DNA of 64,000 nt. It comes from Fimbriimonadia bacterium (GTDB taxonomy: Bacteria > Armatimonadota > Fimbriimonadia > Fimbriimonadales > JABRVX01). The stretch is taken from contig JBGPGO010000002.1 in the NCBI GenBank assembly GCA_041483895.1, positions 160,001 to 224,000 of the forward strand, written 5' to 3'. The position numbers and the translations under genes were made by a program. The notes beneath the pieces are model-generated. The model saw nothing but the letters and a program-made list of their open reading frames with translations. It was not told where the DNA came from and searched no databases. This document shows positions 7,143-53,878 of the stretch, one piece after another; position 1 is the first letter of the stretch, and each line of letters opens with the position of its first letter.

Positions 7143-7217
7143 TCAATCCCTCAACAGATCCTCTGTACAGTGACAGGACCTCCTTGACACTTATGACAGG
7201 ACCTGTTGAGGCATTGA
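7143..7217. repeat. Composite palindromic element A (collapsed copy)
   Basis: TCAATCCCTCAACAG ... CTGTTGAGGCATTGA with internal duplicated TGACAGGACCT. Confidence 0.8.
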
Positions 7218-7221
7218 AGGC

Positions 7222-7731
7222 TCACTTAACGCGGTGAAAATCGAACTTCGCCTTCTCACCCGGTTTGCCGCCTTTGAAACTCTGCCACTCGCTCACGACG
7301 TGGTTGGGGCCGTCGAACGTGAACGTCACGCGGTGCATGTGCATGTCGCCGGGCTTCATGTTCGAGCCTCTAACGAAATCGAAAAACACGACATTGGCGT
7401 CCTTCCCAGGCTTGAATTTCATGAACGGTTGGTTCCCTGCGCCGCAGTAGTGGGTCATTACCAAGCTGTCGTAATCCATGTGGTAGACGCTGACCATTTC
7501 GAAGGGCGATCCTGGTCCAAGAGTTTCGACCAGTGCGTTGCCGCTTCCTGTGAGTTTGTATTCGACCGTGGCAGGCATTGACTCGCCTCCTTCTCCCATC
7601 TTCCCTTCCCACTTGCCAACGAGGGTCTTCATTTTTTCGAAGGCTTGCTTGCCAGCGTCGTCGTGCCGTGCCATCGATCCAGCGGGTGCCATGAGCGCGA
7701 ATAAAAGGGCGGTGAGCATTACAGTTTTCAT
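7222..7731 (-). CDS. Secreted conserved hypothetical protein (THYCxxGNQP motif)
   Basis: GGAGG SD, signal peptide, LVGKWEG and MTHYCGAGNQPFM motifs. Confidence 0.85.
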   Translation of the reverse strand: MKTVMLTALLFALMAPAGSMARHDDAGKQAFEKMKTLVGKWEGKMGEGGESMPATVEYKLTGSGNALVETLGPGSPFEMVSVYHMDYDSLVMTHYCGAGNQPFMKFKPGKDANVVFFDFVRGSNMKPGDMHMHRVTFTFDGPNHVVSEWQSFKGGKPGEKAKFDFHRVK

Positions 7732-7805
7732 TGGGACCTCCTACGACTGCTAAGTATATCCGACGGGTGGCAAGGAAAAAAGCTTCAATCCCTTGTATGT
7801 TTCAA

Positions 7806-8038
7806 TCAATCCCTCAACAGGTCCTCCTGTTGAGTGTCTTCGGGAGGCTCAGATCCGCAAAACGGCTGCAAGTGATTTGAGGTTCTCACTTGGTCGGGTG
7901 CATCGCCGGTTCGATGTCCGCCGTCCGAGTTCTGGGGCCCGCATGCGTGGCCTGTCCGCCCTACCGGCGGGGATTTCTGTCGCCGGCCGAAGTGGTTGCC
8001 AGGCGCCCTCAACAGGAGGACCTGTTGAGGCATTGAAC
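7806..8038. repeat. Composite palindromic element B
   Basis: Inverted hairpins CTCAACAGG-loop-CCTGTTGAG at both ends plus a ~90-bp core shared with 9720-9810 and 10416-10490. Confidence 0.9.
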
Positions 8039-8228
8039 ACCCAGACGCATCCGGTGGTATGTACCACATTCGAATGACAGTGAAAATCAGGACGTGACAC
8101 GCCGTGTTCCTGCCGGCCAGAATGAACTATCTGAAGCTATCGATCTGTTCCTGTTGAGAACCGATGGAGATGTTCTAGCCCCAGACCGCAGGTAAGCGCT
8201 GCGACGGAAGGTCCGAAGGAGGATCAAG

Positions 8229-8408
8229 ATGTTATATTGGGCAGTAGTGTTTTTCGTTGTCGCGATCGTTGCTGCAATTCTTGGCTTCGCCGGAATCGCA
8301 GGAGCCTCTGCGGGAATCGCCAAGATTTTGTTCGCCGTCTTTGTTGTCCTTTTCATACTGTCGATGTTGATGCACGGTGGACGCGGGCGTCTTAGAAACT
8401 CTCCTTAG
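8229..8408 (+). CDS. DUF1328 (YtjA-like) small membrane protein, absent from ORF track
   Basis: [44 protein letters not shown]. Confidence 0.92.
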
Positions 8409-8470
8409 GAGACCTACAAGAAGGAAGTTAACGCATGTCACGTAGTGAAGAAGCCAGAATCTATTCAAAC

Positions 8471-8767
8471 ATGACGGTTACAGTCGTAATATTGGTCATT
8501 GTCGGAGTTTTGCTCGCCGCGATATTTCTATTGTGGCTGCCTTCGCGCAATTCGACTACATACATCGAACACATGCCGCAGGTCCAACCGCAACAGAGTC
8601 AACCGGCCACTCCAGGTCTGCAGGGAGCTCCGGGCGCCACAGGGCAGCCGGGACCACAAGGGGTCCAAGGGTCGCCAGGCGCCAACGGCGCGAACGGTGC
8701 GAACGGCAGTTCGTCCGGCGGGACGACGGGCGGCGGAAATACCGACGCTACGACCAACGGTGGCTAG
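8471..8767 (+). CDS. Small membrane-anchored protein with collagen-like Gly-X-Y stretch
   Basis: N-terminal TM then 11 consecutive G-X-Y triplets. Confidence 0.75.
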   Translation: MTVTVVILVIVGVLLAAIFLLWLPSRNSTTYIEHMPQVQPQQSQPATPGLQGAPGATGQPGPQGVQGSPGANGANGANGSSSGGTTGGGNTDATTNGG

Positions 8768-8841
8768 AGATGGGAGCGCCATCGGCGCAGTGGACCAACC
8801 GTGCAAGCGCACCCCTGAGGAGGAACGTGCAAGGAGGTATG

Positions 8842-9324
8842 ATGAAAATAAGCGATCTGATAAGCATGTCGATTGTTAGCATAACAGATGGAGAGAGGAT
8901 GGGCACGGTTAAAGATGTGCTCATCGATACCGGTAAGCTGCGGGCGACGGCGCTGATCCTTGGCGGCAAATCCGGCAAGGGTTTCTTATCGCTCGATCAC
9001 GTCAAGAGTTTCGGCCCTGACGCCATCACGATAGAAGGCGCGGACGCGATCCAATGGTCCACGGGACAACTCCATGACGATAGTGGAAGAGAGGCCGCCG
9101 ACTTGATGAAACTCAGTGTCGTGGACGACTCTGGCACGGAAATCGGAGAGTTGCACGAGATCACAGTCGACCTGCCCAGTGGCAACGTCCTGACATTGAG
9201 CGCGAGGAAGGGTGGCGTCTTCGGAATCGGCGCCGAATTTAGCGATATACCAGTTGAAGAAATAGTAAGTATCGGCGCCTCCCTCATTACCGTCAAACAG
9301 GCGGTCGTCTCCGCTACCGTATAA
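8842..9324 (+). CDS. Tandem PRC-barrel domain protein
   Basis: AAGGAGGT SD; two GxxxGxVxD-type barrels with FGPDAI / IGASLI ends. Confidence 0.88.
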   Translation: MKISDLISMSIVSITDGERMGTVKDVLIDTGKLRATALILGGKSGKGFLSLDHVKSFGPDAITIEGADAIQWSTGQLHDDSGREAADLMKLSVVDDSGTEIGELHEITVDLPSGNVLTLSARKGGVFGIGAEFSDIPVEEIVSIGASLITVKQAVVSATV

Positions 9325-9336
9325 GGAGGTCAACAA

Positions 9337-9492
9337 ATGTTAGAAGCTATTATCGTGATTCTCGTCATCCTTTGGCTGCTCGGGTTTTTTGCCATGCATA
9401 TCACGAGTGGAATGATCCATGTGCTGTTGGTGGTTGCGCTCGTTGTGTTCATCGCCCGCATGCTGGGCTCCCGAAGGTCGATAGAGGACTGA
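9337..9492 (+). CDS. lmo0937 family (DUF5670) small membrane protein, absent from ORF track
   Basis: TAAGGAGGT SD; MLEAIIVILVILWLLGF...GMIHVLLVVALVV. Confidence 0.9.
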   Translation: MLEAIIVILVILWLLGFFAMHITSGMIHVLLVVALVVFIARMLGSRRSIED

Positions 9493-9522
9493 GGGCTCCA
9501 ATCGCAACGCCAAAACGCAAGT

Positions 9523-9550
9523 TCCCCCCGCATTGAACCCGCGGGGATTT
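9523..9550 (+). terminator. Putative intrinsic terminator
   Basis: CCCCGC/GCGGGG hairpin followed by ATTT. Confidence 0.5.
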
Positions 9551-9840
9551 GTAATGTTTCAACAATCACATTGTTGAGGCGGGTTGTTGCAGTAACCTCC
9601 GTTTCGGCGGGAACTTGGGGCGCTCGATAATTGAGCCCGGCTTTGTTCACGCCTGCCGAACTTCGTGGCGGTTGCAACGTTCACTAGCCCTCAACAATGT
9701 GATTGTTGAGGCATTACAAGTCCGCCGTCCGGGTCCTGGGGCCCGCATGCGTAGCCTGTCCGCGCTACCGGCGGGGAGTTCTGTCGCTGGCCGAGGTGGC
9801 TGCCAGGCGCCCTCAACAGGAGGACCTGTTGAGGGATGGA
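9551..9840. repeat. Composite palindromic element C
   Basis: Three hairpins (TCAACAAT-CAC-ATTGTTGA, CTCAACAAT-GTG-ATTGTTGAG, CTCAACAGG-AGGA-CCTGTTGAG) plus the shared core. Confidence 0.9.
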
Positions 9841-9926
9841 TGGAAAAGCGGGGTATATTACACTCGTATTGGAGCCCAACGATCTTGGGCTTTATGCTAC
9901 GAATCTAGTCAAAAGGGAGAACATCT

Positions 9927-10361
9927 GTGAAAAAATTCATCGCACTGACGGCGCTTTTCGTCGTAGTGGTCTCCGGCGCGTTCGCCGGTGGATTGTCCTA
10001 TGGCAAAGGCACATTCGTCACGACAAACGGACTTAAGGGGACCTTCGATTTCTGGTTTACATCGAGTCCGGCCTTCATGAGTCGATTTAAGGTTGGCGTC
10101 GACTTTGGAACAAACCCGCCTGGGGTCTACTACTTCAACGGTTCGTGGATGCTGGGCGCCACATGCAAAGCCGTCCCATTGGAGTCAGGCATCGAAGCAA
10201 AGGGATTGTGGAACGGTCAGTTCACGGATGGATGCCTCCACGCCTTCAAAGTGCTTGGCGGAACGATTCTGGATTTCGATGTGTTCGATGCACTCGGGTA
10301 TCTGATAACGGAGCAGATCGGCTGGGTGACGAGCGGGAACGTTACCATCATTTGCAGATAA
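9927..10361 (+). CDS. Secreted hypothetical protein
   Basis: GGGAGA SD, GTG start, signal peptide MKKFIALTALFVVVVSGAFA. Confidence 0.8.
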   Translation: MKKFIALTALFVVVVSGAFAGGLSYGKGTFVTTNGLKGTFDFWFTSSPAFMSRFKVGVDFGTNPPGVYYFNGSWMLGATCKAVPLESGIEAKGLWNGQFTDGCLHAFKVLGGTILDFDVFDALGYLITEQIGWVTSGNVTIICR

Positions 10362-10381
10362 GCGCGCAGCGCAGTTTTGTT

Positions 10382-10651
10382 AATCCCCCAACAATGTGAT
10401 TGTTGGGGGATTTCAGGGCCCGCATGCGTGGCCTGTCCGCGCTACCGGCGGGGATTTCTGTCGCTGACCGAGGTGGCTGCCATGCGCCCTCAACAGGAGA
10501 CCACAAGACAGGTTGCGCGGGGTGGGAAGCCCCGGCGCGTCTGGGGCGGCGCGGGGGTCCGTGGGCGGGGGCCGATTCCTCCCAAGCTCGGAATGGCACT
10601 TCTGCCAAACGGCGGCCCTGTTGCTTCAGCAGGAGGACCTGCTGAAGCATT
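10382..10651. repeat. Composite palindromic element D
   Basis: Hairpins ATCCCCCAACAAT-GTG-ATTGTTGGGGGAT and TGCTTCAGCAGG-AGGA-CCTGCTGAAGCA around the shared core. Confidence 0.88.
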
Positions 10652-10724: not shown

Positions 10725-12299
10725 ATGGTCCGCAGTTTCTTGACTGTAGTCACCGTATCCGTCATTGTCTTCTCGTCAGTTGCAGCACAATACGAACTTA
10801 TCAGCGGAACCCCGGGCGGCGTGGCGGGTAACGGTCCCTCTAAAAGGGCCTGTCTGAGCGCCGACGGACGATACGTCGCGTTCGACAGCGACGCATCAGA
10901 TTTGGTCGCAAACGATACAAACAACCGCACGGACGTTTTTGTCCGCGATCGGTTATTGAATGTGACCGTTCGGGCTTCTACCGCGAGTAATGGTGCGCAA
11001 GCGAGTGGGGCGTCATATGCGCCAAGAATCTCGGACGATGGCCGGTTCATATTATTCATAACGTTTGCATCCAATCTCGTCGAAGGCGGGGCGGTACCAG
11101 CATTGTGCATGAAAGATCGAGTAACCGGCAATCTGAAGTACGTAACCTCAGGTATGGCGTACGACCTAAGTCAATTCTCTGGCGCGCCAAGCTACACGCT
11201 TTCACGTGACGGCAGGTACGTTGTCTATCAAATCTCAGCAACCGCAGAACTATATCGCTGGGACCGGACCAATTCGGAGACAATTCTGGTCTTGCCTACT
11301 CCAGGGAATGTCCGCGGCCAGCCCGGGATATCTTCTGACGGACGGTATGTCATTTGGAGTTTAGACGAAAGCGTAATATTTCGCTTTGACTGCATTGCAG
11401 GGAATTGGCTAAAAGTTACCGATCACGGGAGCTATGCATCAATGTCGGCCTCAGGGGGTACGATTTATTTCATCACATCCAGTCCAATCGATGGAACTGA
11501 CACAAATGGGAAGCCGGACGTCTACCGCTGGCAGGCTTCTTCAGGCCTCATTGACCGCATCTCGCTTGCTTCGGATGGCGCCCAGACTTCTGGAGACTTC
11601 AGAGCGTGCGCGGTGGATACGGAAGGCCGATGCGTTGTCTATGGTCATTGGTTCGATTTTGGGACGGTTAGTCATATCGACAGTGTCGTGCTTCGAGATA
11701 CGGCGACATACGACACGCTGCAATATCCAGATACTGGTTCGTATGTTGCTCATCCAGATATCTCCGCTGATGGCATGTCGATCGCCTTCGAAATCTCGAG
11801 CTCTCTGACCGCTCTGGATACAAACAGCGATTGGGATGTATATGTGACCACTTACGCACATCCTGCGATTCAGAGCGCGAGTGGCCTGATCGACTGGCAA
11901 TTCCTTCGTGGACCATCACCGAACCAGATCTCAATCGATCTCCGTAGGCCAAATGTTGCGTACCCAATGGCGACGCTCTCGGTCGACGCCGGGTCCGATG
12001 GCAGTTTCTCTATCCCCGTTCCACCGACAATGTTTGACATATCCATCCGCCACGAGAGTTGGGTACTGCGTACGATTAAGGGCCTGGATGCGACTTCGGC
12101 CCCCGTCGTCGACGTGCAGGTGAACCTGGTCAATGGCGACGCAAATCGCGACAACGTTGTCGATCTTTTCGATTTGAGCTTTATGTTCATCACGTTCGGC
12201 CAGACATCCCAACCATCGGACGTAAACCTTGACGGCGTCGTGGATCTTCGAGATATCACAGTCGTATTCCTTAACTTTGGAGCGGTCGGGGATACCTAA
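10725..12299 (+). CDS. Secreted TolB-like (PD40) beta-propeller protein with dockerin-like tail
   Basis: GGAGG SD; SADGRYVAF/DTN..DVF repeats; NGDANRDNVVDLFDL...DVNLDGVVDLRDI. Confidence 0.88.
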   Translation: MVRSFLTVVTVSVIVFSSVAAQYELISGTPGGVAGNGPSKRACLSADGRYVAFDSDASDLVANDTNNRTDVFVRDRLLNVTVRASTASNGAQASGASYAPRISDDGRFILFITFASNLVEGGAVPALCMKDRVTGNLKYVTSGMAYDLSQFSGAPSYTLSRDGRYVVYQISATAELYRWDRTNSETILVLPTPGNVRGQPGISSDGRYVIWSLDESVIFRFDCIAGNWLKVTDHGSYASMSASGGTIYFITSSPIDGTDTNGKPDVYRWQASSGLIDRISLASDGAQTSGDFRACAVDTEGRCVVYGHWFDFGTVSHIDSVVLRDTATYDTLQYPDTGSYVAHPDISADGMSIAFEISSSLTALDTNSDWDVYVTTYAHPAIQSASGLIDWQFLRGPSPNQISIDLRRPNVAYPMATLSVDAGSDGSFSIPVPPTMFDISIRHESWVLRTIKGLDATSAPVVDVQVNLVNGDANRDNVVDLFDLSFMFITFGQTSQPSDVNLDGVVDLRDITVVFLNFGAVGDT

Positions 12300-18714: not shown

Positions 18715-19060
18715 GCGTCTTTGCACGGTGACATTCATCCCACCGGGGCATGTCAACCGAGCTAACTTTCGCCGACACCCGACGGCGAAAGGATTCCCCT
18801 TTGCTTCATCCCTCCAGAAAAGTGTGGGTTAGCACTGGGTGTATTAGGATTTCACCCCTCAACTAGTTCTCCATACGCCGACAAGACTTGGTTTACACTT
18901 CTGACAGGACATCGTTGACACTTTCGACAAAGGAAAAGGATGCCATTTCGGGAAGTGCTGAGTACCAGGTGGCGCGTTGCAACGCCTAAACAATCAAATT
19001 GTGGAGGTGCCCGGAGGGTACAATCCTGATCCGGTCCGATGAGGCCGTCAGGAGCAAGCA

Positions 19061-33827: not shown

Positions 33828-34832
33828 TTACCTTTGGATAGGTGGTATCGACCGTGAAGGTGGGGGTAGGTTTGTGCTATGCCCTGGGAAGGCGTGCGCC
33901 GATGGATCGATACGGGTCTTCGCATAGCAGACCGCTGTGCACGCCTCGCCGACGCCGGTAGCCAAAAGACGGAGCTTGCCTTCAAATTGCGCGATGTCCC
34001 CGGCGGCGAACACTCCTGTGCGGTTGGTTTCTCGGCGCTCATTCACTTTGATCTGGTTGCCTTCGATCTCGAGCCCCCAATGTCGCAGCGGACCAAGATC
34101 GGCTTGAAAGCCGATGTTCACCGAAATCGCGTCCACCGGGATCCGCTCCGTTTCCTTCGTTTTCATGTGCCGAATCGTCACCGCTTCCACTCGTCCGTTA
34201 CCGTGCAGCTCGGCCACTTCATAAAATGTGCGCAGGTTGACCGGGCTGGCAAGAACCTGCCGCACAGTGTCCTCATGCGCGACAAAAACATCCCGGCGAT
34301 GGATTTGGGTCGTGGTCCCGGCGTGAGGATGCAGCGCCAGCGACCAATCGAACGCCGAGTCTCCGCCGCCCACAATGAGCAGGTTTTTCACCGCAAAGTT
34401 AGACTTATCCCGGACGCCATACCAAAGGCCCTTCCCCAAGAACAGCTCCTCGTTCTCCAAACCCAGTGTTCGAGGAGAAAACGCCCCGACCCCGGCAGTG
34501 ATGATCACCGTCCGGCCTTGCAGCTTTCTGCCGGACAGAGTTGTGATCTCAAATCCGCCCGTGATTTCTGCCAATGATTCGCAGCGCTCGTCCAAAAACA
34601 CCTCGGCGCCGTATTGCAGCCCCTGCTCCGCCATCTCGCGTACCAGATCCTTCGCCAGCACCTTCGGAAACCCCGGCATATCGTAAATGTACTTTTCGGG
34701 ATAGAGCGCCGTGAGCTGCCCCCCGAGTTCCGGCAGGCTGTCGACGATCGTGACACTCATCTGCCGCAGGCCCGCGTAGTAGGCCGCGAAAAGCCCAACC
34801 GGCCCGCCACCGAGTATCAGCACGTCCTTCAT
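33828..34832 (-). CDS. Ferredoxin-NADP+ reductase (thioredoxin-reductase type, YumC-like)
   Basis: GGGPVG, GGQLTALYPEKYIYDMPGFP, GGGDSAFDW, HRR, PGHST; no CxxC. Confidence 0.92.
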   Translation of the reverse strand: MKDVLILGGGPVGLFAAYYAGLRQMSVTIVDSLPELGGQLTALYPEKYIYDMPGFPKVLAKDLVREMAEQGLQYGAEVFLDERCESLAEITGGFEITTLSGRKLQGRTVIITAGVGAFSPRTLGLENEELFLGKGLWYGVRDKSNFAVKNLLIVGGGDSAFDWSLALHPHAGTTTQIHRRDVFVAHEDTVRQVLASPVNLRTFYEVAELHGNGRVEAVTIRHMKTKETERIPVDAISVNIGFQADLGPLRHWGLEIEGNQIKVNERRETNRTGVFAAGDIAQFEGKLRLLATGVGEACTAVCYAKTRIDPSAHAFPGHSTNLPPPSRSIPPIQR

Positions 34833-35527
34833 TCCGCCGCCACCTGCCGGTCGCCTTCCACCCAAAACGCGCCGCTCCGGGTGAACTCTTTCTTCCAGAT
34901 TGGCACGTCCTGTTTCAATGTGTCGATAAGAAAGCGGCATGCCTCGAACGCCTCCGACCGGTGCGGGGTGGCTGCCGCGACAAGTACGGCGGTGTCACCA
35001 GGCGACAACCGCCCGAGCCGATGAACCATGACCACCTCCGCGCCAAATTTCCGGCGCGCCTCGTTTTCAATCTCTCGCATCTGGCGCAGCGCCATCTCCG
35101 TGTGGGCGGAATATTCCAGGTATTCGGTCTCCACATCCCCTGTGCGGCCACGGACGATGCCTTGAAAAATGACCAATCCGCCGTTTGAGCATTCGAAGGT
35201 GTTGGGGTCTTTGGTGGTTGGCGGTTGGGAGGGATCGGCGGGCGAGGACCCCAACACAACACTCCCCTTCACAGTGCGACCGGGAACGGATGGGGATTCG
35301 AGCGTGTTGGGGTCTATGGTGGTTGCCGGTTGGGAGGGATCGGCGGGCGAGGACCCCAACACAACACTCCCCTTCACAGTGCGACCGGGAACGGATGGGG
35401 ATTCGAGCGTGTTGGGGTCTTTGGTGGTTGGCGGTTGGGAGGGATCGGCGGGCGAGGACCCCAACACAACAAGCGGTGGCTTCAGCCAGGAATCCAAGCG
35501 GATCGGTTCATAGATGAGGACGACCAT
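34829..35527 (-). CDS. moaE: Molybdopterin synthase catalytic subunit with in-frame repeat insertion
   Basis: GGLVIFQGIVR, LEYSA, HRLG, HRSEAFEAC, LKQDVPIWKKE. Confidence 0.93.
   Translation of the reverse strand: MVVLIYEPIRLDSWLKPPLVVLGSSPADPSQPPTTKDPNTLESPSVPGRTVKGSVVLGSSPADPSQPATTIDPNTLESPSVPGRTVKGSVVLGSSPADPSQPPTTKDPNTFECSNGGLVIFQGIVRGRTGDVETEYLEYSAHTEMALRQMREIENEARRKFGAEVVMVHRLGRLSPGDTAVLVAAATPHRSEAFEACRFLIDTLKQDVPIWKKEFTRSGAFWVEGDRQVAAE
35191..35471. repeat. 2.7 x 105-bp palindromic tandem repeat inside moaE
   Basis: GTGTTGGGGTC...GACCCCAACAC starts at 35199, 35304 and 35409. Confidence 0.97.
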
Positions 35528-35754
35528 CAGCCCCCGCTGACCGGCGGCAGGATGGCGACCTCGTCTCCGTCGGAAATCGGGTCGTCCCAGGAGGCGAAGC
35601 GGGAGTTTATCGCCACGCGGCAGAAGGACGTGATGTTGTCCAAACCCAATTCCGACGCCACAGTTCGGCCCGTCGCATCGTCCGGAAGCGTCAGGTCATG
35701 GTTGGGACCGCACCGGTCCGCAAGATGGGCAAATAGGAGCACTCGGCACCGCAT
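35527..35754 (-). CDS. moaD: Molybdopterin synthase sulfur carrier subunit
   Basis: VLLFA...DGDEVAILPPVSGG C-terminal Gly-Gly. Confidence 0.93.
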   Translation of the reverse strand: MRCRVLLFAHLADRCGPNHDLTLPDDATGRTVASELGLDNITSFCRVAINSRFASWDDPISDGDEVAILPPVSGG

Positions 35755-52100: not shown

Positions 52101-52160
52101 CGTCAGAGTCTTTGTTGTCGGTGGTTTGAGGAGGGTTCGCTGGCCATGAACCCTGGCACA
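52101..52160. repeat. Diverged intergenic copy of the moaE palindromic element
   Basis: About two-thirds identity to 35199-35258 by manual alignment; terminal stem kept by compensatory/wobble pairs. Confidence 0.6.
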
Positions 52161-52210
52161 TTTCCCCCGTAGGTGCAACACCGCGAAAATCAGTGTTATC
52201 ATAGACAGTA

Positions 52211-53878
52211 ATGATCGCGAAACCGTCGATAGCTCTCTTAGTGGCGGCGCTCTCCGGGTCGGCGTGGTGCTCGGGGTTATCTCTCGCCTCCGTCTCCACG
52301 GAAAACATCCAAGGCGCCGGGCTTTCCGGTACGCCCGCGATCAGCGCTGACGGCCGTTTTGTCGCGTTCGTAAGTTCGGCGGCAAATCTTGTTCCCAACG
52401 ATACGAACGGAAAAGCGGACGTCTTTGTGCGAGACCTTTTGTTGGGGACGACGGAGATTGTCAGCATCAGCACGGATGGCACTCAGGGGAACGACGACGC
52501 ATCCTATCCGGCGATCAGCGCGGATGGGCGGATTGTCGCGTTCACCAGTCGAGCGAACAACCTGGTACCCAACGATACCAACGGTTGGTGGGACATCTTC
52601 GTACGCGATCGGCAGACCGGGATCACGGAGCGGGTCAGCGTAAGCTCGACCGGGGAGCAGGCGAATCACTTCAGCTTCCAGCCGTCCCTGTCCGCCGACG
52701 GGAATCTGGTCTGTTTCGTTAGCCCGGCTTCCAACCTTGTTACAGGCGACACCAATGGAGTAAAGGATATATTCGTACGAGATCGGCAATTGGGGACCAC
52801 CGAGCGAGTTTCCGTTTCGTCTTCCGGCGAGGAGGCCGATCGGCAGACCACCATCGGAGTGATCAGCGCGGATGGCTCGTGCGTCGCGATGGTCAGCTAT
52901 GCCACGAATCTGGCTCCGGGCGATACGGGGCTCTATTCCGATCTGTTCTTGCACGACCGCGGTACGGGGGAGACGATCGAGTTGACGGCAGGCGGCGACG
53001 GGCCCACATTCGATTGTTCGATCAGCGCGTCGGGCCGATTCGTCGCCTTCGTGAGCGATGCCTCGAATCTTGTGCCAAACGATACCAATGGCGTGAAGGA
53101 CGTGTTTGTTTACGACGCAGCGACGGGTATGACCGACCGAATTTCCGTATCGACCGACGGAGCGGAGTTGAACGGGGATTCGACATCGGGGACCCTGTCG
53201 GCTGATGGCCGGTTCGTTGGATTTTGGAGCGGGTCCACGAATGCCGTCCCAGGCGATATCAATGGCCACCTGGACTGCTTTGTGCGCGACCGGATGCTGG
53301 GTACCACAACATGCGTCAGTGCGGGTGGGAATGCGGACAGCTACGAACCGGTCTTTTCCGCCGACGGTTCCCGTTTGGCGTTCCAGAGTCTTGCCTCCAA
53401 CCTCGTGGCGGGCGATACGAACGGTGATTGGGACGTGTTCGTCATGCAACTGCCGACCGCCACGGTCAGTGGTTCGGTTGATTTTGGCGTTGCCAATCCG
53501 CCGACCTCGGTGAACATGCGCCTCTCTTGGTCCGGCTGGGATGAGCCGTTTATGGTAGCGCCCACCGCGTTGAATGGTCAAGGGGAATTCACGATTGCAA
53601 CTCCGAGCGGCCCTCTAGACCTCTCGATCAAGCCCAATCATTGGCTGCGAAGGACACTGGCAGCCGACACGACTTCCGGTAATGCGAGCGGGCTTTTCTT
53701 CGAATTGGCCAATGGCGACGCGGAGGAGGACAACGCGATCGACCTGCTGGACCTGAACCGTATACTGACGGAGTTTGGCAGTGTTGACAATGAGGCGGAC
53801 CTGGACGGATCGGGCCAGATCGATCTTCCCGATCTCAACATCGTATTTCTCAACTTTGGGATGGCTGGGGATTCGTAG
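52211..53878 (+). CDS. Secreted TolB-like (PD40) beta-propeller protein with dockerin-like tail
   Basis: Six or more ISADGRFVAF...NLVPNDTNG..DVFVRD repeats; NGDAEEDNAIDLLDL...DLDGSGQIDLPDL. Confidence 0.9.
   Translation: MIAKPSIALLVAALSGSAWCSGLSLASVSTENIQGAGLSGTPAISADGRFVAFVSSAANLVPNDTNGKADVFVRDLLLGTTEIVSISTDGTQGNDDASYPAISADGRIVAFTSRANNLVPNDTNGWWDIFVRDRQTGITERVSVSSTGEQANHFSFQPSLSADGNLVCFVSPASNLVTGDTNGVKDIFVRDRQLGTTERVSVSSSGEEADRQTTIGVISADGSCVAMVSYATNLAPGDTGLYSDLFLHDRGTGETIELTAGGDGPTFDCSISASGRFVAFVSDASNLVPNDTNGVKDVFVYDAATGMTDRISVSTDGAELNGDSTSGTLSADGRFVGFWSGSTNAVPGDINGHLDCFVRDRMLGTTTCVSAGGNADSYEPVFSADGSRLAFQSLASNLVAGDTNGDWDVFVMQLPTATVSGSVDFGVANPPTSVNMRLSWSGWDEPFMVAPTALNGQGEFTIATPSGPLDLSIKPNHWLRRTLAADTTSGNASGLFFELANGDAEEDNAIDLLDLNRILTEFGSVDNEADLDGSGQIDLPDLNIVFLNFGMAGDS

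Follow-up and report, generated by a model that had tools for sequence, protein, structure and literature searches.

How does a palindromic repeat come to lie in frame within moaE, the gene for the catalytic subunit of molybdopterin synthase, and what does the protein make of it? The repeat sits in a 64,000-nt stretch of the genome of a Fimbriimonadia bacterium, the whole of which we call the window. A preliminary description had placed there a 105-bp unit, repeated with very few differences, inside a MoaE frame that stays open over 232 codons and keeps its coupling to moaD and to an FNR-like gene; all of this was borne out (Table 1). Tandem Repeats Finder reports an array at 35191-35471 with a period of 105, 2.7 copies, 96% matches, and 0 indels, and the 11-bp stem arms begin at 35199, 35304, and 35409. 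PF02391 spans residues 114-206 of the ORF (profile search), and the start of moaE overlaps the stop of moaD. Units 1 and 2 differ at two positions.

Table 1. Features of the moaE locus and a distant repeat copy (positions within the window)
Feature	Positions	Strand	Remarks
moaE, molybdopterin synthase catalytic subunit, 232 aa	34829..35527	-	ORF and PF02391 match
moaD, ThiS family, Gly-Gly C-terminal end	35527..35754	-	Upstream of moaE
FAD-dependent pyridine nucleotide-disulphide oxidoreductase, FNR-like	33828..34829	-	Downstream of moaE, ORFs overlapping
Whole in-frame insert, 273-279 nt = 91-93 codons, residues ~19-111	35195..35473	-	Minimal boundary 35198-35470
Family-A REP, first in gene order: GTTG tag, 11-bp stem, ~37-nt interior	35407..35470	-	
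Linker and decayed family-B REP, three left-arm substitutions	35368..35406	-	Linker resembles host sequence just after insert
Family-A REP, middle copy, two substitutions	35302..35366	-	
Linker and decayed family-B REP, same as first B copy	35263..35301	-	
Family-A REP, last copy, same sequence as first copy; preceded by Shine-Dalgarno-like purine run and in-frame GTG/TTG codons	35197..35261	-	
Degenerate family-A copy, hairpin largely lost	52102..52162	-	12.1 bits, E 0.009 within window

The 105-bp unit is composite. Family A contributes a hairpin of ~62 nt and family B one of ~27 nt, the latter decayed. On the gene strand the insert reads A-B-A-B-A, with all A copies as direct repeats and the A parts of units 1 and 3 identical. 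The TCCCC/GGGGA pairing that had been taken for a second stem of the same element is present in the sequence but is the remnant of the separate family B; its three left-arm substitutions are common to both moaE copies, and the hairpin is weakened. The boundary of the insert is ambiguous over 91-93 codons, a 92-codon boundary giving C|T, the kind of site expected for RAYT cleavage, at both ends. The insert makes up 40% of the 232-aa protein, and 44 of its 91 residues are Pro, Ser, or Thr.

Is the array a property of the cells or of the assembly? We compared the locus with contigs from 8 of 21 sequencing runs, one of which may be the assembly's own sample. A contig from run X3 equals 34780-35339 with 0 differences, leading from the moaE core through the adjacent unit to the private sites of the middle unit, and a contig from run X7 bridges the other junction (35418-35568, 0 differences). 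The insert is real, with its exact count left to the assembly, because both junctions are seen in run contigs while none of the eight runs gave a contig spanning the whole array or an empty-site joint. In five of the eight, the repeat is covered by a 135-nt record (105+30), presumably the collapsed tandem loop expected with 31-mers. We consider it improbable that the figure of 2.7 copies is an assembly artefact (the true number being 1.7, or more than 2.7) or that the population is polymorphic. A 105-bp loop cannot be counted from short-read contigs, and the collapsed records and missing spanning contig fit such a reading, but the middle unit carries two private substitutions, and the X3 and X7 contigs show 0 differences from the assembly. 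Run X2 also contains another allele, of ~98% identity, in which an A copy, followed by 11 loose letters, occupies this junction; both listed core differences are synonymous and three insert differences change residues, tiny numbers drawn in part from a contig of depth 3 that may hold errors. Two further joints probably come from other loci and were disregarded: one in X7 has a side of 26 nt, and one in X3 contains 39 foreign letters.

What did the gene look like without the insert? The two closest homologs among the 120 matches listed are 139 and 140 aa long (61-66% identity over the core) and align to MoaE with one 93-residue gap at residues 19-111, against 91 codons from the element boundary. 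Their first 18 residues best match residues 1-18 of MoaE, with scores of 35 and 42 vs. at most 8 for repeat windows. A scan of JGI metagenomes found no MoaE closer than about 50-56% identity and hence no strain-level empty site. The PF02391 domain, the conserved core residues, and the fold are all present: the 15 columns that are invariant across 50 aligned MoaE sequences all lie in the core and are all conserved here, and in the AlphaFold model the core (pLDDT 94-98) matches solved MoaE, while the insert is mostly of low confidence.

How widespread are the two hairpins? Genome-wide profile searches found 196 loci of family A, a 61-62-nt hairpin with a 10-11-bp stem, and 120 loci of family B, with 0 matches for either profile in the reversed genome. 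The family-A stem covaries: of 175 copies scored, 131 have 9-10 of the 10 positions paired (a figure inflated by choosing the right arm by best pairing), and stem position 4 is T-A in 99 copies and C-G in 58. Both families are dispersed, and their copies are chiefly extragenic: of 134 A-containing clusters, 11 lie in frame within ORFs, moaE counted. The stem foot of family A bears GATG in 100, GTTG in 22, and GCTG in 13 of 147 seeds, and neither GTAG nor GTGG occurs there among the 145 seeds shown; we therefore keep family A apart from the GTAG/CGTC REPs. A GT(A/G)G-type tag was not seen in family B. Family D of the same genome carries GTAG; families A and D look alike by eye, yet their profiles give no same-strand match, and their homology is unproven.

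The preliminary description had also pointed to a diverged copy at 52101-52160 with its stem kept by compensatory changes. This stretch is a weak family-A match, below the genome-wide cut-off (the moaE copies score 57-58 bits), and its stem is kept only in part: of 11 pairs assigned by eye from the profile alignment, 2 are compensatory and 4 broken, and it folds no better than shuffled sequence (z +2.04 and +0.69). Other repeats in the window are hairpins of family C, whose putative cognate RAYTs lie on contigs C6, C21, and C27; these hairpins occur at 7143-10650 and 18856-18930, some of them as long composite elements. Families E, F, and J have one repeat each, starting from 463, 5517, and 3575 respectively. 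Coding repeats at 159-174-bp spacing (52338-53109 and 10852-10942) are presumably propeller-like. A cluster of tRNA-Phe, -Asp, and -Val genes occupies 93-347 on the minus strand.

Does the 105-bp unit itself move? The idea of a palindromic family, scattered through the genome and contributing peptides in frame to its housekeeping proteins, survives in the copy numbers above and in the candidate clusters described below, but the 105-bp unit is not the dispersed element. That it is a single RPE- or MITE-like element moving as a whole is already largely refuted, and we give this reading almost no weight. It would account for the recurrence of A-B neighbours (18 of 196 A loci have a B copy within 60 nt), and published RPEs span about 105-146 bp in the table of PMC3184786. 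Against it, A and B mostly occur apart, the other A-B pairs vary in linker and orientation, each family flanks a RAYT gene of its own, and the whole unit is without terminal inverted repeats; the sole resemblance to the host flank, where a MITE would show a target-site duplication, is 4-7 nt of linker.

Which enzymes could have mobilized the hairpins? The RAYT family NF047646 has eight full-length matches in the genome, seven above the cut-off. One of them, a 179-aa protein encoded at G000:C6:123200-123739 (94.5 bits, cut-off 80), has three A copies upstream and five downstream, the nearest pair inverted, and seven of the eight bear the GTTG tag, as do the moaE copies. The Pfam model Y1_Tnp found six genes and missed this one, which tblastn and NF047646 recovered. 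Four family-B loci flank the RAYT gene on contig C5, and the remaining six RAYT genes adjoin other repeat families (C, D, and F). From this gene neighbourhood we infer cognate pairs, family A with the C6 gene and family B with the C5 gene. The REPtron at G000:C6:122927-124125 holds eight G(T/C)TG-tagged hairpins around its RAYT, which is 47% identical to the RAYT on contig C12; the latter adjoins a long array of GATG-starting family-F repeats.

In the relative G003, a RAYT gene is flanked by hairpins that resemble family B but have changed pairs. In same-order relatives, the repeats on either side of RAYT genes are short, B/C-like hairpins, which have AT(G/C)CC at the foot and lack the GTAG tag. 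A scan of genome contigs found no relative of the family-A RAYT, and no family-A hairpin stands beside 11 RAYT loci from relatives.

Because the two families each flank a RAYT gene of their own, the insert is a BIME-like REP mosaic, most likely delivered by RAYT and then amplified locally. The moaE A copies are 97-100% identical to one another and at most 87% identical to any other copy in the genome (median 73%), which argues that they arose in place. We regard the following course as probable, from delivery of RAYT type through amplification in place to translation as a tolerated, disordered loop of ~92 residues near the MoaE N-terminus. A family-A hairpin would have entered moaE in frame, likely through single-strand cutting and joining of the RAYT type. 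The hairpin and a few host bases would then have been duplicated with a family-B hairpin between them, creating the 105-nt (35-codon) unit, which would have been duplicated again, with later exchange or homogenization among the copies. As 105 is a multiple of three, the frame is kept at any copy number.

What becomes of the insert in the protein? The peptide is likely translated as a disordered loop. Such a loop would be placed between the first strand and turn and strand 2, outside the catalytic core, where selection may tolerate the insert and need not favor it.

The same origin could have led to a different product, in which the B-A junction supplies a ribosome-binding site and an in-frame GTG or TTG start for a ~140-aa MoaE with a REP-derived N-terminus, or in which the repeat peptide replaces native strand 1 within the full-length protein. 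Scored against strand 1 from 16 relatives of the same order, the repeat peptide reaches 15.4 and the native N-terminus 18.4, and no window away from the N-terminus and the repeat junctions exceeds 5.3. Pairing with the anti-SD motif is predicted at -7.2 and -10.2 kcal/mol before V91 and L92 vs. -8.0 at the native ATG. The AlphaFold model likewise leaves the native N-terminus undocked (residues 1-24, pLDDT under 50) and puts residues 89-93 of repeat 3 into the strand-1 slot, with pLDDT 81 over residues 91-100. This placement is biased and does not show native folding, because the input alignment had put the relatives' N-termini there. Moreover, the internal start codons are buried within the 11-bp stem, the native ATG overlaps the moaD stop, the two closest listed homologs match the native N-terminus far better than the repeat windows (scores given above), and including the native N-terminus raises a profile score by 4 bits, including repeat 3 by less than 1. 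A different product is therefore unlikely in our view. Still less likely is a more far-reaching idea, in which a RAYT clade that reads long hairpins tagged GATG or GTTG would have created two things where B meets A: a start codon with its ribosome-binding site, and a peptide mimicking strand 1 of MoaE. If true, a functional substitute for the N-terminus would have come from selfish DNA, and the cell would switch between MoaE isoforms as the number of units changes.

Could the insert instead have impaired MoaE, leaving a recently damaged gene whose decay is still to come? The sheer size of the insert relative to the protein, the near-identical units (which point to recent expansion), and the occurrence of the 105-bp unit in 0 of 60 relatives (DNA search) would all suit this explanation, which we nonetheless think unlikely. 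The gene is the sole moaE found in an assembly that is 95% complete, where no second moaD was found either. Its pathway and client genes retain open frames, namely moaA, moaC, two genes of the DMSO-reductase family, and one of the xanthine-dehydrogenase family; since the pathway and three molybdoenzyme-family genes are kept open, the cell probably still requires MoaE. In the X2 allele, too, this junction is occupied by an A copy, and the few differences listed are silent in the core and alter residues in the insert. The tolerated loop thus remains our preferred reading. The moaA gene (G000:C10:105913-107000) has a ~35-40-residue gap in its profile match, where the sequence belongs to none of the repeat families.

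Are other genes interrupted in the same way? Together, 19 repeat profiles account for 1.2% of the genome; some of these profiles are related to one another, and not all are demonstrated REPs. Under a crude coding model, 65 of the 639 repeat clusters qualify as inserts that lie internally and in frame, spread over 59 ORFs; these are candidates, and moaE, which falls below the 30-codon flank threshold, is not among them. A family match is present in 54 of the 59 candidate host ORFs, and best-scoring matches lie to either side of the insert in 34 of the 65 cases, to one side in 26, and to neither in 5; repeat families are mixed in 25 of the 65. The candidate hosts include QueG, Era, MnmG, WaaA, AlaRS, TrmD, PurA, CarB, Ffh, and DNA polymerase III alpha. 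Single-copy era (G000:C5:14557-15669), for example, is split by a ~68-aa F-F-F-A insert, whereas the match is uninterrupted in 19 of 20 relatives and broken over two contigs in the other. With 65 of 639 clusters scored in this way, most insertions into genes have probably been eliminated, and it cannot be taken for granted that any given one is tolerated. The asnS gene was dropped as an interrupted gene, its family match beginning after the repeat.

Several further ORFs carry coding repeats. The single open frame of a DNA polymerase III alpha/DnaE2-like ORF (G000:C8:64613-69256) runs through three mixed-family clusters, which are 154, 114, and 63 codons long; the true start may come after the first of them. 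A HemN-like radical SAM ORF (G000:C5:46731-48170) contains a 104-codon mixed cluster. The relative G002, of the same family, encodes MoaE fused to MoeB; a low-complexity insertion in this protein looks, by eye, like the E/S-type repeat peptides, which suggests that relatives may carry coding repeats of their own. For annotation, REP inserts explain oversize proteins in this genome.

How does the moaE array relate to known systems? Palindromes in frame in housekeeping genes have a precedent in Rickettsia palindromic elements (RPEs), as the preliminary description had noted; in R. felis, 85 of 728 RPEs lie within ORFs (PMC1166351), and repeat-ORF fusions are among the subjects reviewed in PMC3184786. 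The intragenic REPs and BIMEs of PMC3733652 and PMC3333891 are closer than RPEs of 105-146 bp. RPE-1 is a single long palindrome of an intracellular bacterium, whereas the moaE repeats come from sediment metagenomes; RPE-4 and RPE-6 are filed under CGTC repeats and said to be without a dedicated transposase in PMC3733652, while putative cognate RAYTs are present here. Like the moaE repeats, the intragenic REPs of Di Nocera et al. 2013 (PMC3733652) are palindromic and mostly intergenic, with a minority in frame in ordinary enzymes, dnaE2 and xdhC included as here. These REPs belong to GTAG and CGTC families; Opitutus terrae occurs 70 times in supplement 3, and clusters encode 43-82 aa. Those listed there are 20-40 bp long and tagged GTAG or CGTC, compared with ~62 nt and G(A/T/C)TG for family A, and the moaE insert differs from them in joining two families and in reaching 91-93 aa and two-fifths of the protein. 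The four supplements of PMC3733652 that were searched have no entry under moaE or "molybd."

In architecture the array resembles the BIME-2 and atypical BIMEs of Escherichia coli, which are tandem mosaics of two REP types and linkers whose copies are well conserved within a locus and for which RAYT-based amplification models exist, according to Ton-Hoang et al. (PMC3333891). The moaE array shows the same combination of two REP types, linkers, and tandem copies conserved within the locus, and by this analogy it would work as an intragenic BIME. It departs from the E. coli case, as described there, in that BIMEs are intergenic, carry GTAG tags, and have one cognate transposase, whereas the moaE array is coding and its hairpins would belong to two different RAYTs. 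The family-A and family-B RAYT loci likewise resemble REPtrons, in which a Y1 HUH transposase gene (TnpA-REP) is flanked by its own REPs, as described in PMC3333891, Corneloup et al. (PMC8266576), and Quentin et al. (PMC6006769); tags are defined in the latter two, and in-frame REPs within genes are mentioned in PMC6006769. A literature search covering sources outside subscription journals found no account of REPs in Armatimonadota and, at keyword level, none of GATG/GTTG-type tags with RAYT.

This probably free-living lineage joins the few in which enzymes are known to be decorated with REPs by the dozen, and one genome here unites the donor families, the transposase genes, and a fresh tandem expansion. 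Its eight full-length RAYT-family genes, beside differently tagged repeats, form a natural panel for asking how RAYTs choose and amplify their substrates, and the 232-aa MoaE lends itself to a simple complementation test of how far a small enzyme tolerates an inserted peptide. Intragenic REPs at this scale are already known from Opitutus terrae and Rickettsia; what is unusual at moaE is the GATG/GTTG/GCTG tagging of family A together with the share of the protein that the insert takes up.
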